From Candidatus Fervidifonticultor secundus (GTDB lineage: Bacteria; Sysuimicrobiota; Sysuimicrobiia; Sysuimicrobiales; Humicultoraceae): DNA of 64,000 bases. Shown piece after piece: positions 3,506 through 60,835 of this stretch; within the stretch, counting starts at the first letter, position 1, and each line of letters opens with the position of its first letter. The DNA lies in contig JAVKIP010000009.1 of assembly GCA_031459385.1 (NCBI GenBank), positions 59,419 through 123,418 on the forward strand. Direction: 5' to 3'. The notes under the pieces were generated by a model. It worked only from the letters and a program-made list of their open reading frames with translations. It did not search any database and was not told where the DNA came from. The position numbers and the translations under genes are program-made.

Positions 3506-4552
3506 CTACGACCCCACCATGAGATACCGCGCCGGGTCGGCTGCGAACGTCTGGCGGCAGTGGGCGCAACAGAAGTAGACGCGCACGCCGCCGTGCTCCA
3601 GGGTGTGCACCGCGCCCGCCACCGCCACCGTCATCCCGCACACTGGGTCCACCGCCTCGGCGGCCGAGGCATCCACAGTGACCGCGGTATCCGGGGCAGC
3701 CGCTGCCGGCACGGCGCGCAGCCCCGGCGCGGGTGGCGCGTCGCCCGCCGCCTCGTGCCCTCCCGGCGCGCCTACCTCTCGCCGCGCCCGGTACGCCCCG
3801 ATCACCTCGGCGACGATACTGACCGCGATCTCCTCGGGCGTGACCGCGCCGATGTCGAGCCCGGCGGGAGCCCGCAGCGCATCCACCCCCACGGGGTCGG
3901 CCCCCCGACGGGCCAGGTCGCGGCGCACCGCCATGGCACGCTTCGGGCTCGCCACCAGCCCCACGTAGGCGGCCCCGGCCCCGAGCACGCGCGCCAGCAC
4001 GTCCTCGTCGTACTGGCCCATGCTGGCCACCACCACATAGGCGCCGACCACGAGCCCTTCTTGGAACTCGTGCAGCGCAAGGGTGCGGTCGTCCGCGCCC
4101 ACGGCGTCGTCCTTGCCCGCCCGCACCCGCCAGACGTCGAATCCGGTCAGGCGCCCCAGGGCGGCCAGCGCGTCCGCCAGGGGGGCGTCCCCGACGACCA
4201 CCAGGCGGGGCGGCGGCAGCACCGGCTCCAGGTAGATCTCCAGCGTCCCGCCGCTGTGGCACGTCATGGGCTGTTCGATCACCCCTTCCCGCTCCAGGCG
4301 TCCGGCGGCCGTCGGGCTCAACCGCAGCAGCCCCGCCCGGCCGCTGTGGAGCAGGTGGAGCCCCTCGCGCACGACCACCGTATGCGCGCAGCTGCCGCCG
4401 ACCCAGCCCTCGAGCCGGCCGTCGGCCGTCAGGATCGCCTTCATCCCGGGCCGGGCCGACGCGGGACGCTCGATGCGGACCACCGTGGCCAGCACGAACG
4501 GCTCCCCGCTGGCCCGCAGGGCCTGGGCGCGGTCGAGCAGATCGCCCCTCAC
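3506..4552 (-). CDS. XdhC/CoxF-family maturation protein with C-terminal YHS (TRASH) domain
   Basis: GWVGGSCA, MTCHSGGTLEIYLEP, APAGLDIGAVTPEEIAVSIVAE, then DPVCGMTV...YFCCAHCRQTFAADPARY. Confidence 0.9.
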   Translation of the reverse strand: MRGDLLDRAQALRASGEPFVLATVVRIERPASARPGMKAILTADGRLEGWVGGSCAHTVVVREGLHLLHSGRAGLLRLSPTAAGRLEREGVIEQPMTCHSGGTLEIYLEPVLPPPRLVVVGDAPLADALAALGRLTGFDVWRVRAGKDDAVGADDRTLALHEFQEGLVVGAYVVVASMGQYDEDVLARVLGAGAAYVGLVASPKRAMAVRRDLARRGADPVGVDALRAPAGLDIGAVTPEEIAVSIVAEVIGAYRARREVGAPGGHEAAGDAPPAPGLRAVPAAAAPDTAVTVDASAAEAVDPVCGMTVAVAGAVHTLEHGGVRVYFCCAHCRQTFAADPARYLMVGS

Positions 4553-4631: not shown

Positions 4632-6983
4632 CTACTCCGTCACGCCGTGGGCGCGCAGCACCTGCCACACCTTCCAGGGCGTGATGGGGATGTCGATGTG
4701 GCGCACGCCCAGGTGCCACAGCGCATCGATCACGGCGTTGGCGATCGCGGCCGGCGCCCCCACCGTGGCCGACTCGCCCACGCCCTTGGCGCCCAGCGGG
4801 TGGTGCGGGGACGGCGTCACGGTCTTGTCGGTCTCCCACCGCGGCGTCTCCACCGCCGTGGGCAGCAGGTAGTCCATGAAGCTCCCGCCGCGGATGTTGC
4901 CGTCCTCGTCGTAGGTGATCTCCTCGTAGAGGGCCGGGGCCAGGCCCATGGTGAGCCCGCCGTGGATCTGCCCCTCCACGATCATGGGGTTGATGATGTT
5001 GCCGCAGTCGTCTACCGCCACGAACCGCCGGATCTTGACCTCGCCCGTACCCTTGTCGATGTCCACCACGCAGATGTAGCTGCCGAAGGGGAAGGTCAGG
5101 TTCGGCGGGTCGTAGTAGGCCACCGCCTCGAGCCCGGCCTCCAGCCCCTGCGGGTGGTTGGTGTAGGCGGCAAAGGCGATCTCCTGAATGGTCTTGGCAC
5201 GCTGCGGCGCCCCCCGCACGTAGAACCGGCCGCGCTCCCAGACCAGGTCGTCTTCGTGCGCCTCGAGCAGGTGCGCCGCGATCTTGCGGGCCTTGTCGCG
5301 GATCTTGCGGGCGGCCACCGCCCCGGCGGCGCCCGCCGTGGGGGTGCTGCGGCTGGCGTAGGTGCCCAGCCCGTAGGGTGCCGTGTCGGTGTCGCCTTCC
5401 TCCACCACGATGTCCGCCTCGGGGATGCCCAGCTCGTGGGCGATGATCTGCGCGTAGGTGGTCTCGTGGCCCTGGCCCTGCGACTTGGTGCCGAACCGCG
5501 CTACGACCTTGCCGGTGGGGTGGATGCGGATCTCGGCGCTGTCGAACATCTTCAGGCCCAGGATGTCGAAGGTGTGGGACGGCCCGGCGCCTACGATCTC
5601 GGTGAAGCTGGAGATCCCGATACCCATGAGCTCACCGCGTCGGCGCCGCTCGGCCTGCTCGCGGCGCAGGTCGGCGTAGCCAATCTTCTCCATGGCCTTC
5701 TGCAGCGCCGCGTGGTAGTTGCCGCTGTCGTAGGTCCACCCCAGCGCGGAGCGGTACGGGAACTGCTCGGGCCGGATGAAGTTCTTCAGGCGGAACTCGG
5801 CGGGATCCATGCCCAGCTGGTGGGCCAAGATGTCCACCATGCGCTCGATGGTGTACGACGCCTCGGTGACGCGGAACGAGCACCGGTAGGCGATGCCGCC
5901 CGGCGGCTTGTTGGTGTAGACCCCGTCCACCTCGGCGAAGGCCGTCTGGAAGTCGTAGGAGCCGGTGCAGATGGAGAACAGGCCCGCGGGGAACTTGGAC
6001 GGGTTGGCCGCGGCGTCGAAGGCGCCATGGTCGGCGACGGTCTTGACCCGCAGCGCGGTGAGCCGGCCGTCCCGGGTGGCGGCCAGCTCGGCCGTGATGT
6101 GGTAGTCGCGGGCGAAGGAGTCGGCCTGCAGGTTCTCCATGCGGTCCTCGATCCACTTCACCGGCTTGCCGGTGAGCACCGAGGCGGCCACCGCCAGGAC
6201 GTAGCCGGGGTAGACGGGGACCTTGCCGCCGAAGCCGCCACCGATGTCGGGCGAGATGACCCGGATCTTGTGCTCGGCCAGCCCCAGGTGGCCGGCCACC
6301 AGGGCCACCACCGTGCGGATGGCGTGCGGCGCCTGGGTGGTCATCCACAGGGTGAGCCTGGCCTCCACCGGGTCCCACCAGGCGACGCACCCGCACGTCT
6401 CGATGGACGAGACGTGGATGCGCGGGATGTAGATGTCCTGCGCCACGGTGACGTCAGCCGCGCGGAACGCGCGGTCGGTCGCGTCCCGGTCGCCCACTTC
6501 CCAGTGCCAGATGTGGTTGGTCTTCTGCTCGCGGTCCTGGCGGATCACCGGGGCGCCGGGCTCGAGAGCCTTGCGCGGGTCGATGACGACCGGCAGCGGC
6601 TCGTAGTCCACCTCCACGGCGGCGACCCCGTCGGCCGCGGCGTACCGGTCCGTCGCCAGCACCGCGGCCACTTCCTGGGCCTGGTAGAGCACGGTGTCGA
6701 TCGGCAGCACCATCTGCCGGTCCGACATCAAGGTCGGCATCCAGGCCAGCCCGTATCTGTCCAGGTCCCGGCCCGTGATCACGGCCAGCACGCCCGGGAT
6801 CGCCAGGGCCTTCTCGCTGCGGATCGCCTTGATCCTGGCGTGGGCGTACGGGCTGCGCACGATGTCCAAGTAGAGCATGCCGGGCAGCGTGATGTCGTCG
6901 ATGTAGGTGCCCTTGCCGCGGAGGAACCGCGCATCCTCCTTGCGCTTGACCGCGTGCCCCATGCCGTGCGCCTGCGTGGCCAT
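4632..6983 (-). CDS. coxL: Aerobic CO dehydrogenase large subunit, form I
   Basis: Active-site loop GGIAYRCSFRVTEA matches the form I AYXCSFR signature. Also DIGGGFGGK, QGQGHETT, GAKGVGES. ATG 6983 follows RBS GGAGGAG. Confidence 0.96.
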   Translation of the reverse strand: MATQAHGMGHAVKRKEDARFLRGKGTYIDDITLPGMLYLDIVRSPYAHARIKAIRSEKALAIPGVLAVITGRDLDRYGLAWMPTLMSDRQMVLPIDTVLYQAQEVAAVLATDRYAAADGVAAVEVDYEPLPVVIDPRKALEPGAPVIRQDREQKTNHIWHWEVGDRDATDRAFRAADVTVAQDIYIPRIHVSSIETCGCVAWWDPVEARLTLWMTTQAPHAIRTVVALVAGHLGLAEHKIRVISPDIGGGFGGKVPVYPGYVLAVAASVLTGKPVKWIEDRMENLQADSFARDYHITAELAATRDGRLTALRVKTVADHGAFDAAANPSKFPAGLFSICTGSYDFQTAFAEVDGVYTNKPPGGIAYRCSFRVTEASYTIERMVDILAHQLGMDPAEFRLKNFIRPEQFPYRSALGWTYDSGNYHAALQKAMEKIGYADLRREQAERRRRGELMGIGISSFTEIVGAGPSHTFDILGLKMFDSAEIRIHPTGKVVARFGTKSQGQGHETTYAQIIAHELGIPEADIVVEEGDTDTAPYGLGTYASRSTPTAGAAGAVAARKIRDKARKIAAHLLEAHEDDLVWERGRFYVRGAPQRAKTIQEIAFAAYTNHPQGLEAGLEAVAYYDPPNLTFPFGSYICVVDIDKGTGEVKIRRFVAVDDCGNIINPMIVEGQIHGGLTMGLAPALYEEITYDEDGNIRGGSFMDYLLPTAVETPRWETDKTVTPSPHHPLGAKGVGESATVGAPAAIANAVIDALWHLGVRHIDIPITPWKVWQVLRAHGVTE

Positions 6984-6985
6984 GG

Positions 6986-7486
<501 letters not shown>

Positions 7487-7487
7487 C

Positions 7488-8363
7488 TCACGCCCTCCCC
7501 GAGGCCCGCTCCAGGGCCCGTCTCAGCGCCCGTGCCAGGAGCACCCGCACCATGTCGCGCTTGTATTCGGCCGGCCCACGCAGGTCGCTGGCCGGGTCGG
7601 CTTCCGCTGCAGCCGCCTGGGCCGCGCGGGCGATGGCCGCCGCGTCGGGCACCCGGCCCAGGAGCGCCTCCTCGGCGCCCCGCGCCCGCAGCGAGGTGGG
7701 CCCGACGTTGCACAGCCCGATGCCCACCGACGCACAGGTCCCGCGGGCGTCCAGCGCCAGCTGCACGCCCACGGCAGCGACGGCGAAGTCGCCCACCTTG
7801 CGCTCCAATTTCAGGTACGCGCCGCCGCTATGTGGGCCCGGCCGCGGCACGCGGATCTCGGTGAGGAGCTCGTCGGGCTCCAGCGCCGTCGTGAACGTGT
7901 CGACGAAGAAGTCGTCGATGGGCACCACGCGCTCGCCCCGCGGGCCGGTCGCCACCACCGACGCCCGGGCCGCCAGCATCGCTGCGCCCCAGTCGCCGGC
8001 CGGGTCCGCGTGGGCCAGCGACCCGCCCACGGTGCCCATGTTCCGCACCAGCGGGTCGGCGATGACCCGGGCCGCGTCGGCCAGCAGCGGGTAGCGCTGC
8101 CGCAGCAGGTCGGAGGCCTCCATCTCGGCGTGGCGGGTCATGGCGCCGATGCGCAGCACCCCGTCCGCCTCCTGCAGACCCGCCAGACCGGGAATGCGGT
8201 TCAGGTCCACCAGGTAGCGCGGCGACGCCAGGCGCAGCTTCATCAGCGGAATCAGGCTGTGCCCGCCGGCCAGGGGCTTCGCCTCCGGCCCGTGCGTCCG
8301 CAGCGCCTCCAGCGCCTCGGCGACGCTGGTGGGCGCCAGGTAGTCGAACCGATCCGGGATCAT
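7488..8363 (-). CDS. coxM: CO dehydrogenase medium FAD subunit (possibly extended to 8660 by an HTH fusion)
   Basis: [54 protein letters not shown]. Confidence 0.95.
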
Positions 8364-8660
8364 CCCGCCCCACCCCCTATGCCTGCGTCTGCGCGGCGCG
8401 ATGGCGCGCCCGCGCGAGAGATCCACCACGTTGCGGCCGAGCGGCCGTCCCAGGAGAAACAGCGCCGGACCGAGCTCGTACCGGCGTGAGGCCGGCGCGA
8501 ACTCCACGAAACCGAGTGCGGTGAGGGTCTTGAGCAGGTTGTGGCAGGTACTCTTGTTGAGGCCCAGCACCCTGTGGATCTGGGCCAGGGACGCGCCGCG
8601 GCTCCCCCGGCGTTCGAGGTACCGGAGGATCGCCACGGCTCTGACCACAGCGGGTACCAC
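8364..8660 (-). CDS. IclR-type winged HTH domain, in frame with coxM and without an intervening stop
   Basis: VPAVVRAVAILRYL...SLAQIHRVLGLNKSTCHNLLKTLTALGFVE...RYELG is a classic IclR N-terminal domain. GTG 8660 is preceded by GGGGGGAG. No IclR effector domain. Confidence 0.8.
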
Positions 8661-8709
8661 CGGCTCCCCCCCGAGCAGTAGTCAGTACCGGTCCGCTGGC
8701 GACAGAAAC

Positions 8710-8727
8710 CGTTCTTTAGAGAGAACG
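8710..8727. promoter_or_regulatory. Palindromic putative operator CGTTCT-N6-AGAACG
   Basis: Perfect 6-bp inverted repeat in an AT-rich patch between the promoter and the first cox gene. Confidence 0.55.
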
Positions 8728-8751
8728 ACAGTTCCCGGTGCTGTTGTGCCA

Positions 8752-8780
8752 ATAATGGGCGGACCGCGGAGACCTGTCAA
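8752..8780 (-). promoter_or_regulatory. sigma70-type promoter of the cox operon
   Basis: TTGACA-17 nt-CATTAT on the minus strand, conspicuous in a very GC-rich background. Confidence 0.7.
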
Positions 8781-8905
8781 CCCCCATGACGAGGCGGGAA
8801 AGCGTGCCTGGACCGAAAGTCGGCCGACGCAGGCCGCGGGGCGAGGCGCGCCGCGGGTGGGGATGGCGCCACGCGCCACAGGGAGGGTGGTACGGTTCCG
8901 GGGGA

Positions 8906-9358
8906 CTACGTGCGCCGCGGGCGGGCGTCGACCTCCCGCTCGAGGGCTTTGAAGAACTCACCCGCCAGCTGCTTGGCCACGCCGCCGAACAGCCGGTGGC
9001 CCACGCTCATGAGCACGCCGGTCACCTGCGCGTCGCCCACGTAGGTCACGAGCGTCTGATCGCCCTGGGCCTGTAGCGTGAGCGCGCCGGTGGCCTTGAT
9101 GGTGCCGGTGCGGCCGCTGCCTTCGACCACGAGCGTCATCTTCTCGGGCTCGACCTGATCGGTGATGCGCACCCTGCCGTCGTAGGATCCCTTGACCGGG
9201 CCTACGGCCAGCTCGATGGTGGCCGCGTACTCGTTGGGGCCGGCCGGCCGCAGCGCCTTGAGCCCCGGGGTAGTCCGGGTGAGCACGTCGGGATCGTTCA
9301 GCGCGGCCCACACCCGCTCGCGCGGCGCGGGCAGCACGTACTGCCCCTCGATCTTCAT
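8906..9358 (-). CDS. coxG: Second CoxG family protein
   Basis: MKIEGQYVLPAPRERVWAALNDPDVL...VGPVKGSYDG...VGHRLFGGVAKQLAGEFFKAL. Confidence 0.88.
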   Translation of the reverse strand: MKIEGQYVLPAPRERVWAALNDPDVLTRTTPGLKALRPAGPNEYAATIELAVGPVKGSYDGRVRITDQVEPEKMTLVVEGSGRTGTIKATGALTLQAQGDQTLVTYVGDAQVTGVLMSVGHRLFGGVAKQLAGEFFKALEREVDARPRRT

Positions 9359-9401
9359 CGACCGATCCTCCTGCGCAGGCAACCGAACCGCGTGCAGGGT
9401 C

Positions 9402-9431
9402 ACTATAGCGACGCCGCCGTCGCGAAGTCAA
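9402..9431 (-). promoter_or_regulatory. sigma70-type promoter for the second coxG
   Basis: TTGACT-18 nt-TATAGT on the minus strand. A second TATAGT on + at 9490-9495 may serve the divergent gene. Confidence 0.55.
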
Positions 9432-21028: not shown

Positions 21029-21083
21029 AGTGGGCACGCGACCTGGCCGTCCGTGCGGCGCCGGTGTGCGCGGGGGGCCCGCG

Positions 21084-21953
21084 GTGAAGCCGGCGCCGTT
21101 CCAGTACCTGGCCCCCCGCAGCCGCGCGGAGGCGCTGGACGCGCTGCGCCGGTTCGGGCCCGACGCGAAGGTCCTGGCCGGCGGACAGAGCCTGGTGCCG
21201 CTGCTGGCGATGCGGCTGGCCCGGCCCGCAGTGATCGTCGACATCAACCGCGTGCCCGACCTGGCGTTCATCCGCGCCGCGCGCGGTGCGGTCGCCATCG
21301 GCGCGATGACGCGACAGCGGGCCGCGGAGGCTCACCCGCTGGTGGCCGGGCGGCTGCCCCTGCTGCGCGAGGCCCTGCGGTGGATCGGCCACCCGCAGAT
21401 CCGGACCCGCGGCACGGTCGGCGGCAGCCTGGCGCACGCCGATCCCGCGGCGGAACTGCCCGCCGTGGCGTCGGTGCTCGGCGCGACGTTCGTGGTGGCC
21501 AGCACGCGCCGCCGGCGCACGCTGCGGTGCGAGGAGTTCTTCACCGGATACCTGACCACGGCGCTCGAGCCCGACGAGTTGCTCACCGAGGTCCGCTTCC
21601 CGCTGCCGCCCGCGGGCGCGGGCTGGGCGTTCCAGGAGGTCGCGCGGCGCCACGGGGACTTCGCGCTGGTCGGTGTCGCGGCGCTGGTGCGGCTCGACGG
21701 CGACCGCCGGTGCGCCGAGGCGCGGCTGGCGTTCATCGGCGTCGGGCCCGGGCCCGTGCGGGTGCCGGACGCCGAGGCGCTGCTCGCCGGGCGCGCGCTG
21801 ACGCCGCAGGCCGTCGAGGAAGCGGGGCGCGCGGTCTCGGCCGCGCTCGAGCCCGAAGGTGACATCCACGCCAGCGCCGACTACCGCAAGCACGTGGCCG
21901 GGGTCCTGGCGGCGCGGGCGCTGCTGCAGGCGGCAGAGAGGGTGCAGGCATGA
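21084..21953 (+). CDS. Molybdenum hydroxylase FAD subunit (CoxM-like)
   Basis: [48 protein letters not shown]. Confidence 0.92.
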   Translation: MKPAPFQYLAPRSRAEALDALRRFGPDAKVLAGGQSLVPLLAMRLARPAVIVDINRVPDLAFIRAARGAVAIGAMTRQRAAEAHPLVAGRLPLLREALRWIGHPQIRTRGTVGGSLAHADPAAELPAVASVLGATFVVASTRRRRTLRCEEFFTGYLTTALEPDELLTEVRFPLPPAGAGWAFQEVARRHGDFALVGVAALVRLDGDRRCAEARLAFIGVGPGPVRVPDAEALLAGRALTPQAVEEAGRAVSAALEPEGDIHASADYRKHVAGVLAARALLQAAERVQA

Positions 21954-58516: not shown

Positions 58517-60835
58517 TCACGCCACGGCCGCCGGCGCGGCGTCGGCGCCCACGCGGTCCGCCCGATCGACCACGTGCTGGGCCAGCCGCAGCTCCAGCAA
58601 CGCCAGGATGAAGGCCAGGGTGGACTCGGCGCCCTGGTTCTGGTTGACGCGGTCAGGGTGCAGGCCGTCGCGGCACCCGCCGGTGGCCGGATCGTAGAGC
58701 GGCAGGCCCAGGTCGTTCGCGCCCAGGAACCACTCGAACGCCCGCTGCGCACGCCGATGCCACCGGGCCTCCTCCGTGACGCGGTGGGCGGCCAGGCAGG
58801 CCCCGACCATCGTCTGGGCTTCCAGCGGCTGCTGGTCGAACCGCGCCCGCTCGCCGCCCCGCCGGTAGAACCCGTGGCACCCGATGGGGACGAAATGCCC
58901 GTCGGGCGCCTGCTGGAGCCGGAAGAGCCACTCCAGCGCCTCCAGCCCCGCGGCGATCGCGTCGGATCGCTGCAGCGTGGTGCCGACGACCAGGAGCGCA
59001 TGCGGGAGCGTGGGGTTGGCGTACGCCACCACGTCCTCGAACCAGCGCCAGTCGTCGGTCCGGTGCGCGCGGTAGCCCGCGAGCAGCCGGTCTGCCAGCT
59101 CGGCGGCGACCCCCCGGGCCAGGCGGTCGCCGCCAAAGGCGCGCAGGTACTCGCAGCACCCCAGGGCGGTCATCGCCCACGCCCGCGGGCTCGTGCACGC
59201 CCCGGCCGCCGCCAGCGCGCGCTCGAAGAGCCGGCCGGCGGCGCCGCGCAGCCCGGCGTCCTCGGACCGGCCCAGTGCAAGACCCAGCGCCCACAGCGCC
59301 CGGCCGTAAGCGTCCTCGCTGCCCACCTGGTCGTGCCACCTGCGGTCGTAGCCCAGCACGTTGCGGAACCGCCCGGTGGACGCGTCGAACGCGTGCCAGA
59401 GGAACGCCAGGTAGCGCGGCGCCAGCCGTGCGCCCACCGCCGCGGCCTCGTCGCCGAGGTTCTCCAGGAGCACGGTGGCCGCCAGCGCCCGCGCGTTGTC
59501 GTCGGTGGTGTAGCCTTCCTGGCGGTTGGGCACGGTGAAGACCGCGTGCTGCAGCAGGCCGACGTCGTCGGTCATGCGCTCCAGATGGTCCAGGCGAAGC
59601 GGCGGCAGCTCCGCCGGTCGGGCGTCCTGCGTCTTGACGACAAACGGCCGCGGCGCCCGCATGCGCTCGGCCCGCACCCGCTCGAAGAGCGCCAGGTAGC
59701 GGCGGGCGACCACCGGCCAGGTCATCTCGCGGCCCAGCAGGTAGGCGCGCTTGCGCATGGCGTGGCGCTCGCTCTCGTTGTCCAGCAGGTCGACCACGGC
59801 CCGCGCAAGGGCATCGGCATCCCCGAACGGGACCAGCACGCCACGCCCGTCGGCCAGCAGCTCTTCTGCATGCCAGTACGGCGTCGAGATCACGGCCTTG
59901 CCGGCGCCCACCGCGTAGGCCAAGGTGCCGGAGGTGATCTGCTCGACGGACCGGTAGGGGGTCAGGTACAGGTCGGTCGCCCCGATCCACTCCACCAGCT
60001 CCTGCTCGGTCACGAACCGGTTGTGGAACAGCACATGGGGGTCGACGCCCAGCGCCTGCGCCCGCCGCAGCAGGGCCAGCCGGTACGACTCGCCCTCGCG
60101 GCGCAGCACGTGGGGGTGGGTGGCCCCCAGCACGACGTACACCACGTGCGGATGCCGGGCGAGGATGGCCGGGAGCGCGTCGATGACGACCTCGATCCCC
60201 TTGTGGGCGGACAGGAGGCCGAACGTCAGCAGCACCTGGCGGCCCTCCACCCCGAACTGGTCCTTGTAGAAGTTGGGATCCACGAACGGGACATCGGGAA
60301 TGCCATGGGGAATGACTTCGATCTTCTCGGCGGCGACGCCGTAGATCTCGCGCAGGAACTCGGCGCCCCGGCGCGTCATGACCACCAACCGATCCGAGCG
60401 AGCGGCCAGCTCGTCCAGCACCCGGCGCTGCGCGGGGTCCGGGGCCCGCAGGACCGTGTGGAGGGTGGTGACGACCGGCATGCGCAGATCACGCAGCAGC
60501 GCCACCACGTGACTCCCGGCGATGCCGCCGAAGATCCCGTACTCGTGCTGGAGACAGACGAGGTCGACGCCGGTGCTGTTGAGGAAGTCGGCGGCGCGCC
60601 GATAGGCGGCGATGTCGCCCTCGGCGATCTCGAACCGCACCGGGAACCCGTAGGGGTAGCCTGCGGGCCGGTCGTTGACCGGCAGCACCAGCCACGACAC
60701 GTCGGGCGCAGCCTCGGCCAGCGCGTGGTACAAGCTGGCCGAGAACGTGGCGATCCCGCACTGCCGCGGCAGGTAGGTACCGACGATGGCCACGCGCTGC
60801 AGGGCCGGGGGCATCCGGGTCATCATCGTGCCCAC
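58517..60835 (-). CDS. GT4 glycosyltransferase fused to C-terminal glycosidase-like domain
   Basis: YLPRQCGIATF, QHEYGIFGG, TFGLLSAHKG, QITSGTL, then GLLQHA, GYTTDDNARAL, FDQQPLEA, NQNQGAES. Confidence 0.9.
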   Translation of the reverse strand: MGTMMTRMPPALQRVAIVGTYLPRQCGIATFSASLYHALAEAAPDVSWLVLPVNDRPAGYPYGFPVRFEIAEGDIAAYRRAADFLNSTGVDLVCLQHEYGIFGGIAGSHVVALLRDLRMPVVTTLHTVLRAPDPAQRRVLDELAARSDRLVVMTRRGAEFLREIYGVAAEKIEVIPHGIPDVPFVDPNFYKDQFGVEGRQVLLTFGLLSAHKGIEVVIDALPAILARHPHVVYVVLGATHPHVLRREGESYRLALLRRAQALGVDPHVLFHNRFVTEQELVEWIGATDLYLTPYRSVEQITSGTLAYAVGAGKAVISTPYWHAEELLADGRGVLVPFGDADALARAVVDLLDNESERHAMRKRAYLLGREMTWPVVARRYLALFERVRAERMRAPRPFVVKTQDARPAELPPLRLDHLERMTDDVGLLQHAVFTVPNRQEGYTTDDNARALAATVLLENLGDEAAAVGARLAPRYLAFLWHAFDASTGRFRNVLGYDRRWHDQVGSEDAYGRALWALGLALGRSEDAGLRGAAGRLFERALAAAGACTSPRAWAMTALGCCEYLRAFGGDRLARGVAAELADRLLAGYRAHRTDDWRWFEDVVAYANPTLPHALLVVGTTLQRSDAIAAGLEALEWLFRLQQAPDGHFVPIGCHGFYRRGGERARFDQQPLEAQTMVGACLAAHRVTEEARWHRRAQRAFEWFLGANDLGLPLYDPATGGCRDGLHPDRVNQNQGAESTLAFILALLELRLAQHVVDRADRVGADAAPAAVA

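Follow-up and report, generated by a model that had tools for sequence, protein, structure and literature searches.

The 64,000-nucleotide window analysed here (the whole stretch, positions 59,419 to 123,418 of contig JAVKIP010000009.1 from Candidatus Fervidifonticultor secundus) carries an operon like those of form I aerobic molybdenum-containing CO dehydrogenase (Mo-CODH), in which the gene for the FAD subunit, coxM, is preceded in the same frame by an IclR-type winged helix-turn-helix (HTH) DNA-binding domain. This open reading frame (ORF), here called HTH-coxM (7488..8660, minus strand), is almost certainly a real and maintained fusion, and comparison of related sequences indicates that the gene is conserved among uncultured hot-spring bacteria of one clade. 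Two proteins are most likely made from it, plain CoxM from an internal ATG at 8363 and a longer HTH-CoxM from the GTG at 8660, and we favour, with a probability of roughly 0.6, the reading that the long isoform autoregulates the cox operon through a palindrome just upstream of its start codon.

Structure of the HTH-coxM gene

The long isoform of HTH-coxM has 390 amino acids (AAs), read without a stop from GTG 8660 up to the coxM stop, and consists of an IclR-type winged HTH (AAs 1–69, 8454..8660), a disordered Arg-rich linker (AAs 70–99, 8364..8453) and canonical CoxM (AAs 100–390, 7488..8363), all on the minus strand. In Pfam searches the HTH_IclR domain (PF09339) matches AAs 4–54 (E 6.1e-13; 48.8 bits against a cutoff of 22), FAD_binding_5 matches AAs 104–273 (E 3e-54) and CO_deh_flav_C matches AAs 281–381 (E 3e-23), and there is no match to the IclR effector domain (PF01614, IclR_C) in the 390-AA ORF, whose residues 100–390 are CoxM. 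Since the effector domain was tested for and is absent, the protein carries only the DNA-binding domain of the IclR family and is not a canonical IclR protein. The NCBIfam models agree with this division: the first 70–75 residues match several IclR-type regulators and the remainder matches FAD subunits of the xanthine dehydrogenase (XDH) family, none of the latter above its curated cutoff (glyceraldehyde dehydrogenase subunit beta, NF041019, scores 297.2 bits where the curated cutoff is 350).

Residue 1 of the solved CutM/CoxM chains 1ffu_C and 1n5w_C aligns to query residue 100, the Met at 8363, and 1ffu_C is collinear with the query throughout (its residues 1–285 against 100–385, E 1e-77). 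Because the solved chains begin there, the first 99 AAs are an added N-terminal module, and the solved chain closest to them is 5tjj_A, an IclR-family regulator (E 2e-12). An AlphaFold2 model built from a 22-row alignment (mean predicted local distance difference test score, pLDDT, 82.9; predicted template modelling score, pTM, 0.71) has a confident three-helix-plus-wing module at AAs 1–69 (block-mean pLDDT 71–93), drops below a pLDDT of 50 at AAs 70–100, and is confident in the CoxM part beyond. The linker varies in length among fused relatives by in-frame indels, and its last codons overlap the internal Shine-Dalgarno sequence discussed below. The sequence-only reading of this region had seen an IclR winged HTH and an Arg-rich linker that run from GTG 8660 without a stop into CoxM, and no IclR effector domain; the ORF, the Pfam matches and the solved-chain alignments bear it out on both points. 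At the level of sequence the protein has one of the traits of a trigger enzyme, an enzyme and a DNA-binding part in one polypeptide.

Conservation of the fusion

A stop-free match to query residues 1–388 or more was found in eight of 41 genomes (G000, G001, G002, G003, G007, G008, G017 and G029), the 41 being the window's own genome and 40 relatives, among them the unpublished G010 and G019, both without a full-length fusion match. These eight genomes span six genera and two families. PF09339 and PF00941 also occur together in 17 of the 120 best-listed 90%-identity protein clusters, namely the window's own and 16 others at 59–83% identity, and such conservation excludes chance as the origin of the joined frame. 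A search for this architecture in relatives had been proposed as a check, and its answer is positive in both collections. The fused clusters are labelled "FAD binding domain-containing protein" or, by JGI, "carbon-monoxide dehydrogenase medium subunit", and the carriers are mostly named Armatimonadota by NCBI. A further fused locus (L025) belongs to Candidatus Fervidifonticultor octavus, which the NCBI taxonomy places in Candidatus Sysuimicrobiota, and the metagenome contigs L029, L030 and L031/L032 are fused as well, which brings the intact fused loci to 13 (eight genomes, L025 and L029–L032).

With residues 1–99 as the query, 19 proteins were found at E ≤0.001: 13 fusions and, at 39–50% identity, six ordinary IclR proteins. 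Searching genome contigs with the single sequence confirmed one fused locus among four, the sole find of a short-protein search was a 56-AA fragment on a 934-nt contig, and the ESM Atlas returned no usable match. An exhaustive search of protein representatives with the HTH listed no fusions of ~390 AAs, which are presumably clustered under plain CoxM, and it is uninformative on spread. Several candidates were set aside. In G022, G013, G015, G005 and G038 CoxM-like genes are preceded by long open frames, but these have no HTH and are merely GC-rich; in P0129, P0149, P0151, P0169 and P0191 the IclR part is either repeated in tandem or linked to a periplasmic-binding-protein domain, and none of them is an enzyme fusion. 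Two large proteins, P0128 (5477 AAs) and P0138 (1357 AAs), match about residues 44–88 of the query in five and six stretches, respectively (E 2e-14 and 1e-10), and may be repeat proteins with wing-like units.

Four public DNA runs from one hot springs metagenome study contain the stretch, and three of them may be the source of the DNA; no RNA run with it was listed. In each run one Logan contig spans at least 7363–9000 with no differing letters and no gaps; the junction, which was to be checked for an assembly indel, thus has none. All four runs also hold other contigs at 90–95% likeness with a "CC" insertion behind 8107 and skips in 7350–8280, within coxM; these are short partial matches that probably come from the cox genes of co-occurring related organisms and are not variants of this genome.

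For the eight genomic copies, aligned by codon, the ratio of nonsynonymous to synonymous change (dN/dS, by the Nei-Gojobori method) is 0.09–0.41 for the HTH (median 0.28, 27 defined pairs), 0.14–0.28 for CoxM (median 0.20, 28 pairs) and 0.10–0.74 for the 24-codon linker, all of these being rough figures, as many pairwise dS values are near saturation (proportion of synonymous differences, pS, up to 0.74). The start codon stands in the same aligned column in all eight copies (six GTG, one TTG and one ATG), and each of these fused loci has a G-run 3–8 nt ahead of it, which in the window is the G-rich Shine-Dalgarno sequence GGGGGGGAG of the long isoform (8664..8672, minus strand). When nine HTH modules are aligned, the presumed recognition helix shows no variation at K36, S37, C39, L43, K44 and T45. 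On the strength of the low dN/dS, the conserved start codon and G-run, and the invariant recognition-helix residues, the HTH is, as far as sequence comparison can tell, a maintained and functional module under purifying selection and not a drifting remnant. The dN/dS check proposed with the sequence-only reading therefore comes out on the side of purifying selection, with HTH and CoxM medians of 0.28 and 0.20, and the alternative offered there, a decaying truncated IclR gene that lost its stop, does not agree with a fusion that is in frame, conserved across several genera and under such selection.

Internal start and two probable isoforms

All 22 aligned sequences share the Met at 8363 (M100), which is preceded, 4 nt before its ATG, by an internal Shine-Dalgarno sequence for the short isoform, AGGGGGTGGGG (8368..8378, minus strand). 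The 10-mer core of the latter, GGGGGTGGGG, is found 4–5 nt upstream of the internal ATG in all 12 orthologous loci, fused or not, and 16S rRNA can presumably base-pair with AGGGGGUG through its CACCUCCU end, one of the pairs being G-U. An internal ribosome binding site had been noticed before and called weak; it is indeed present, but its retention in 12 of 12 loci shows that it is not weak. All eight fused genes encode the 10-mer as AGG GGG TGG GGN, in which AGG and GGG are among the rarer codons (15% of Arg and 32% of Gly codons, respectively, in the window's cox genes), and the conserved peptide HRGWGG seems largely to reflect this nucleotide signal. So strong and conserved a Shine-Dalgarno sequence fits separate translation of plain CoxM. 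The idea that one gene gives two products, which was part of the sequence-only reading, gains indirect support because the internal ATG and its Shine-Dalgarno sequence are invariant, and because lineages in which the HTH is deleted keep coxM behind the same signal.

Putative promoter, candidate operator and predicted HTH dimer

HTH-coxM is separated from the upstream coxG gene by a 245-nt spacer that holds a sigma-70-like promoter (8752..8780, minus strand), composed of TTGACA (8780–8775), a 17-nt spacer and CATTAT (8757–8752). This is the sole sigma-70-like site of the 8300–9000 region, it matches the consensus at 10 of 12 positions (one such site was found, against a mean of 0.0 in 50 shuffles), and its TTGACA is aligned in seven of the eight fused loci; we take it as the putative promoter of coxMSL. 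A candidate operator, CGTTCTCTCTAAAGAACG (8710..8727, assigned to neither strand), with the core GTTCT-N6-AGAAC at 8711–8726, follows the -10 hexamer after about 25 nt and precedes GTG 8660 by 50 nt. The motif GTTCTCNCNANAGAAC, the palindromic arms GTTCT and AGAAC between promoter and start codon, stands out from its surroundings: the columns GTTCTC.C.A.AGAAC are invariant in all eight aligned upstream regions, in which mean column identity is 57% and indels are many.

The palindrome is also rare. GTTCT-N6-AGAAC has one copy in the whole 3.3-Mb genome, where a reversed control pattern has two forward and two reverse matches, and the candidate operator has one copy in the window even when two mismatches are allowed. 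Ten of the 41 genomes have a single copy each of GTTCTCNCNANAGAAC and the remaining 31 have none (the reversed control has four matches in all). The ten comprise the eight fusion carriers and, in addition, G009 and G023 with their HTH remnants; the site always lies just upstream of the HTH start or remnant. The exact site is present upstream of the start in all 13 intact fused loci, at a distance of 49–76 nt as read in G000, G002, G007, G017, L025 and L029–L032. Two 5-bp arms 11 bp apart from centre to centre have a spacing suited to a dimeric HTH. A palindrome so placed, between promoter and Shine-Dalgarno sequence, resembles a dimeric HTH repressor site, and we infer from its sequence and position that the HTH would bind it; the candidate operator fits autoregulation.

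Homodimer prediction for residues 1–99 gave an interaction prediction score from aligned errors (ipSAE) of 0.72 in three runs, against 0.00 for the best control, with contacts that agree to at least 82% and a partner pLDDT of at least 74. Of proteins solved as pairs, 20 of 30 come up to the mark set for ipSAE, as does one of 23 solved as single chains; IclR DNA-binding-domain dimers have been solved in the PDB, and the predicted dimer's pass may reflect its likeness to such complexes.

Loss of the HTH in relatives

All 12 orthologs group together as a single clade in a CoxM tree (support 95/97), and the closest unfused orthologs fall within the fused ones, with G009 sister to fused G017 (100/99) and G013 sister to fused G029 (86/89); at least four changes of state are needed. 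DNA remnants of the HTH in unfused loci give the direction of change as loss. In G009 a remnant of the HTH's second half survives out of frame (LKTLELFGFVDYAPLSRRFTL), G020 has the first ten HTH codons (TVPAVARAIR) fused straight to the Shine-Dalgarno sequence, and in G006 and G013 only the end of the linker is left. In three contigs with one sequence (L033–L035) an internal deletion breaks the frame and leaves a stub of 45 AAs, P0147, which is present on 23 contigs. In G023 (L024, G023:C90:3600-6000, about 217–480) the exact palindrome and 17 HTH codons are joined to a CoxG-like C-terminus, which is either a real rearrangement or a misassembly of this metagenome-assembled genome (59% complete). 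Wherever the downstream gene of an HTH-loss locus was seen, coxM is intact behind the same Shine-Dalgarno sequence. The palindrome is exact in G009 and G023, has two mismatches in L033–L035, is reduced to half in G006 and G013 and is absent from G020; this series fits a regulator and site that decay together after HTH loss, the palindrome usually decaying, in small groups of kin that are not independent and with G006 and G020 79% and 76% complete, respectively, although their loci themselves were read.

Proposed mechanism and alternatives

We propose that plain CoxM, made from the internal Shine-Dalgarno sequence and ATG 8363, would supply most of the enzyme subunit, and that the long isoform from GTG 8660 would carry its IclR-type HTH tied to CoxM by the ~30-residue disordered linker. 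Two HTH modules would pair, bind the unique GTTCT-N6-AGAAC palindrome and repress coxMSL transcription; it is the position of the palindrome just downstream of the operon promoter that suggests repression, and with it autoregulation by the long isoform. More speculatively, a free, unassembled or oxidised long isoform might dimerise via its HTH and shut the cox promoter, and incorporation into the membrane-associated (CoxLMS)2 complex, or FAD reduction in CO turnover, might part the HTHs and derepress it. Mo-CODH is described, in passages of PMC12202499, as a dimer of CoxSML units joined through CoxL, which places the two CoxM subunits at opposite ends of the enzyme. That the CoxM part acts as a sensor, as the sequence-only reading had suggested, would make HTH-CoxM a true trigger subunit and is a tentative, rather doubtful extension of the proposal.

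The same genome may still show the kind of arrangement from which the fusion arose. The closest HTH paralog is a full-length, 297-AA IclR protein (L014 1450–2343, on G000 contig C34; 46% identity over AAs 2–78), and its gene lies directly upstream of a xanthine-oxidase-family operon that begins with a coxS-like gene (L014 2346–2846) followed by a coxL-like gene. The fusion could have arisen by deletion of the effector domain in such an IclR-coxS/coxL-like arrangement.

Several observations weigh against autoregulation by a covalently joined, maintained HTH-CoxM. Deletion or rearrangement has destroyed the HTH in G009, G020, G023 and L033–L035, and probably in G006 and G013, and its repeated loss in several lineages means that it is dispensable; the near-saturated dS noted above makes the selection estimates coarse. 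The top match of the exhaustive HTH search, P0127, is a separate 99-AA HTH ORF (56% identical) which, unlike the fused form, ends in ...PRRLRHGGGVR, and in view of it the covalent HTH-CoxM link is perhaps not essential. A stop-terminated HTH ORF in a relative had been named beforehand as evidence that would count against the fusion; one such ORF does exist, but it is a small minority form, with two member sequences on contigs of 2930 and 2418 nt. Its ending matches the product expected of a one-base shift in the G-run, with a stop that may overlap the coxM ATG, and this rare split form may reflect a homopolymer error. The interface of the predicted dimer takes in residues 41–51 of the presumed recognition helix. 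Since the arms of the palindrome are invariant, their conservation would by itself look the same for a protein site, a phylogenetic footprint or a small RNA hairpin; folding predicts such a hairpin locally at the palindrome (-12 kcal/mol, z -2.2), and in G009 and G023 the palindrome is exact although the HTH is not intact.

The P0127 form bears on another reading of the locus, that the HTH is an effector-less mini-repressor from a truncated IclR gene, a constitutive autorepressor whose link to CoxM is incidental and which would act in the same way if it were separate or if the disordered linker were cleaved. A stand-alone 99-AA protein with an otherwise conserved HTH is what this reading would expect, as are a disordered linker of low sequence conservation, an HTH predicted to dimerise by itself, and a plausible ancestral arrangement in the form of a full-length IclR gene upstream of another coxS/coxL-like operon in the same genome. 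Set against these are the in-frame state of all 13 intact loci and 17 clusters, with linker indels that are all multiples of three (an in-frame count that is partly circular, since fused forms were selected by frame), the confinement of the split form to a single two-member cluster whose frameshift lies in a G homopolymer prone to sequencing errors, and the consideration that a repressor without an input yields homeostatic control only. We regard the incidental link as unlikely, though it keeps a substantial minority share of our belief. That the palindrome is not the target of the HTH we consider improbable; it would then serve another regulator or be an RNA leader element, and the HTH would have some other role, such as binding elsewhere, tethering to the nucleoid or aiding assembly. 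The invariant arms (in which covariation cannot decide), the local hairpin and the retention of the site in G009 and G023 speak for this idea. The 91-nt leader as a whole, however, folds no better than its shuffles (z +0.42), an Rfam scan of 8300–9000 at E up to 1 found no family, the motif is confined to genomes with a present or recent HTH and always lies beside its start, the site decays in the older HTH-loss lineages, and its 11-bp half-site spacing suits a dimeric HTH.

The two readings that would deny HTH-coxM any function fare worse than those that dispute its mode of action. A truncated IclR gene without a stop, translated or not, drifting and functionless, would explain the absent effector domain and the repeated losses, but hardly an HTH with a dN/dS near that of CoxM, 13 loci free of stops and frameshifts at up to ~40% protein divergence, or a start codon and Shine-Dalgarno sequence conserved in eight of eight loci together with an invariant recognition helix; we hold it to be very improbable. 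An assembly or sequencing indel that joined two genes has in its favour the G-rich homopolymers at the junction and nothing else, and it is refuted for the window by the contigs of the four runs (no differences and no gaps over 7363–9000) and by independent genomes and metagenomes that share the same frame. Autoregulation of the cox operon by the long isoform thus stays the reading that we prefer.

The cox operon and its surroundings

Downstream of HTH-coxM on the minus strand lie coxS (6986..7486), which encodes the [2Fe-2S] subunit (Pfam Fer2_2, E 4e-35, and Fer2), and coxL (4632..6983), which encodes the Mo-Cu subunit (Pfam Ald_Xan_dh_C, MoCoBD_1 and MoCoBD_2) with a start at MATQ as read from the ORF and AYRCSFR in its translation, a sequence that we take to be the form I signature (AYXCSFR). 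The accessory genes include coxG (8906..9403, minus strand; Pfam COXG, E 7e-26), upstream of the promoter, and, downstream of coxL, a coxD-like AAA gene (1994–2944), coxE (855–2102), a second coxG-like gene and a further XdhC-like gene. The coxM-coxS-coxL order, the AYRCSFR loop and the coxD/E/F/G-type accessory genes are those of a form I Mo-Cu CO dehydrogenase operon, and by its sequence the operon is form-I-like. The sequence-only reading had placed HTH-coxM as the first ORF of the cox operon; coxG lies upstream on the same strand, with the promoter-like site in the spacer between the two.

Between coxL and coxD an XdhC/CoxI-type maturation protein (3506..4552, minus strand) has a C-terminal YHS domain (PF04945, E 1e-7). 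The YHS domain is a putative metal-binding module, and it may bear on metal insertion into the Mo-Cu site. We note that the window has a second CoxM-like FAD subunit gene (21060–21947, plus strand; G000:C59:80478-81365) whose product is 45% identical to CoxM (E 1e-66), which points to a second XDH-family enzyme locus ~12 kb off. In G008, G009 and G006 a second, divergent CoxM-like gene (43–45% identity; L005 357–1352, L009 505–1395 and L010 460–1308, the last two in coordinates given after turning to the gene's strand) sits between coxG and (HTH-)coxM, a position where the window has none.

Comparison with known systems

What is known of how aerobic CO oxidation is regulated comes from a few model organisms and concerns separate regulator proteins: the abstracts of the respective papers describe CoxC as an MHYT-LytTR regulator of the aerobic cox genes (PMC11347149) and CutR as a LysR-type regulator of the cut genes (PMC12609908). 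HTH-CoxM would share with them a dedicated transcriptional control of an aerobic CO dehydrogenase operon; CoxC and CutR, however, are separate proteins of other families with sensor domains of their own, whereas here the DNA-binding domain is within an enzyme subunit. Full-text literature searches returned, among the titles and abstracts listed, none that describes an HTH-CoxM fusion; in the main text of the paper that names the carrier genus "IclR" does not occur, and the passages seen, which concern the anaerobic CODH/ACS complex, say nothing of the fusion.

If CoxM does act as the sensor, the locus would have a previously undescribed coupling of aerobic CO oxidation, or of holoenzyme assembly, to transcription without a separate sensor. 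With one protein and one 18-bp single-copy candidate operator, the proposed circuit is compact and open to direct test. The locus also illustrates the fusion of a regulatory domain to an enzyme followed by repeated loss, with apparent co-decay of regulator and operator. HTH-CoxM is like IclR regulators (5tjj_A and the L014 paralog) in its N-terminal PF09339 winged HTH, its Y.LG...LG wing/linker motif and a predicted dimer of the DNA-binding domain, and differs in that CoxM takes the place of their C-terminal effector/tetramerisation domain, PF01614. It is like the CoxM and CutM subunits of form I enzymes (1ffu_C, 1n5w_C and 8uem_B), with which residues 100–390 align end to end (E 1e-77 to 1e-63), but all solved CoxM proteins and most of those in databases start at the MIP motif, and HTH-CoxM has 99 additional N-terminal residues.

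The nearest parallel in principle is trifunctional proline utilization A (PutA). The redox control of PutA is experimentally established, whereas HTH-CoxM is known from its sequence. Both have an N-terminal DNA-binding module on a flavin enzyme, and the autogenous repression proposed here for HTH-CoxM has its counterpart in PutA, described in the abstract of PMC5293562 as a flavoenzyme with a DNA-binding domain that is an autogenous repressor. HTH-CoxM is nevertheless not a member of the PutA family, as the DNA-binding domain of PutA is a ribbon-helix-helix and that of HTH-CoxM an IclR winged HTH. The PutA enzyme is a single chain and CoxM one subunit of an (LMS)2 complex, and HTH-coxM, unlike putA, has retained an internal start from which a form lacking the DNA-binding domain would be made. 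Should CoxM modulate DNA binding, the PutA principle would have a second flavoenzyme example, here a molybdoenzyme of several subunits from an uncultured thermophilic phylum.

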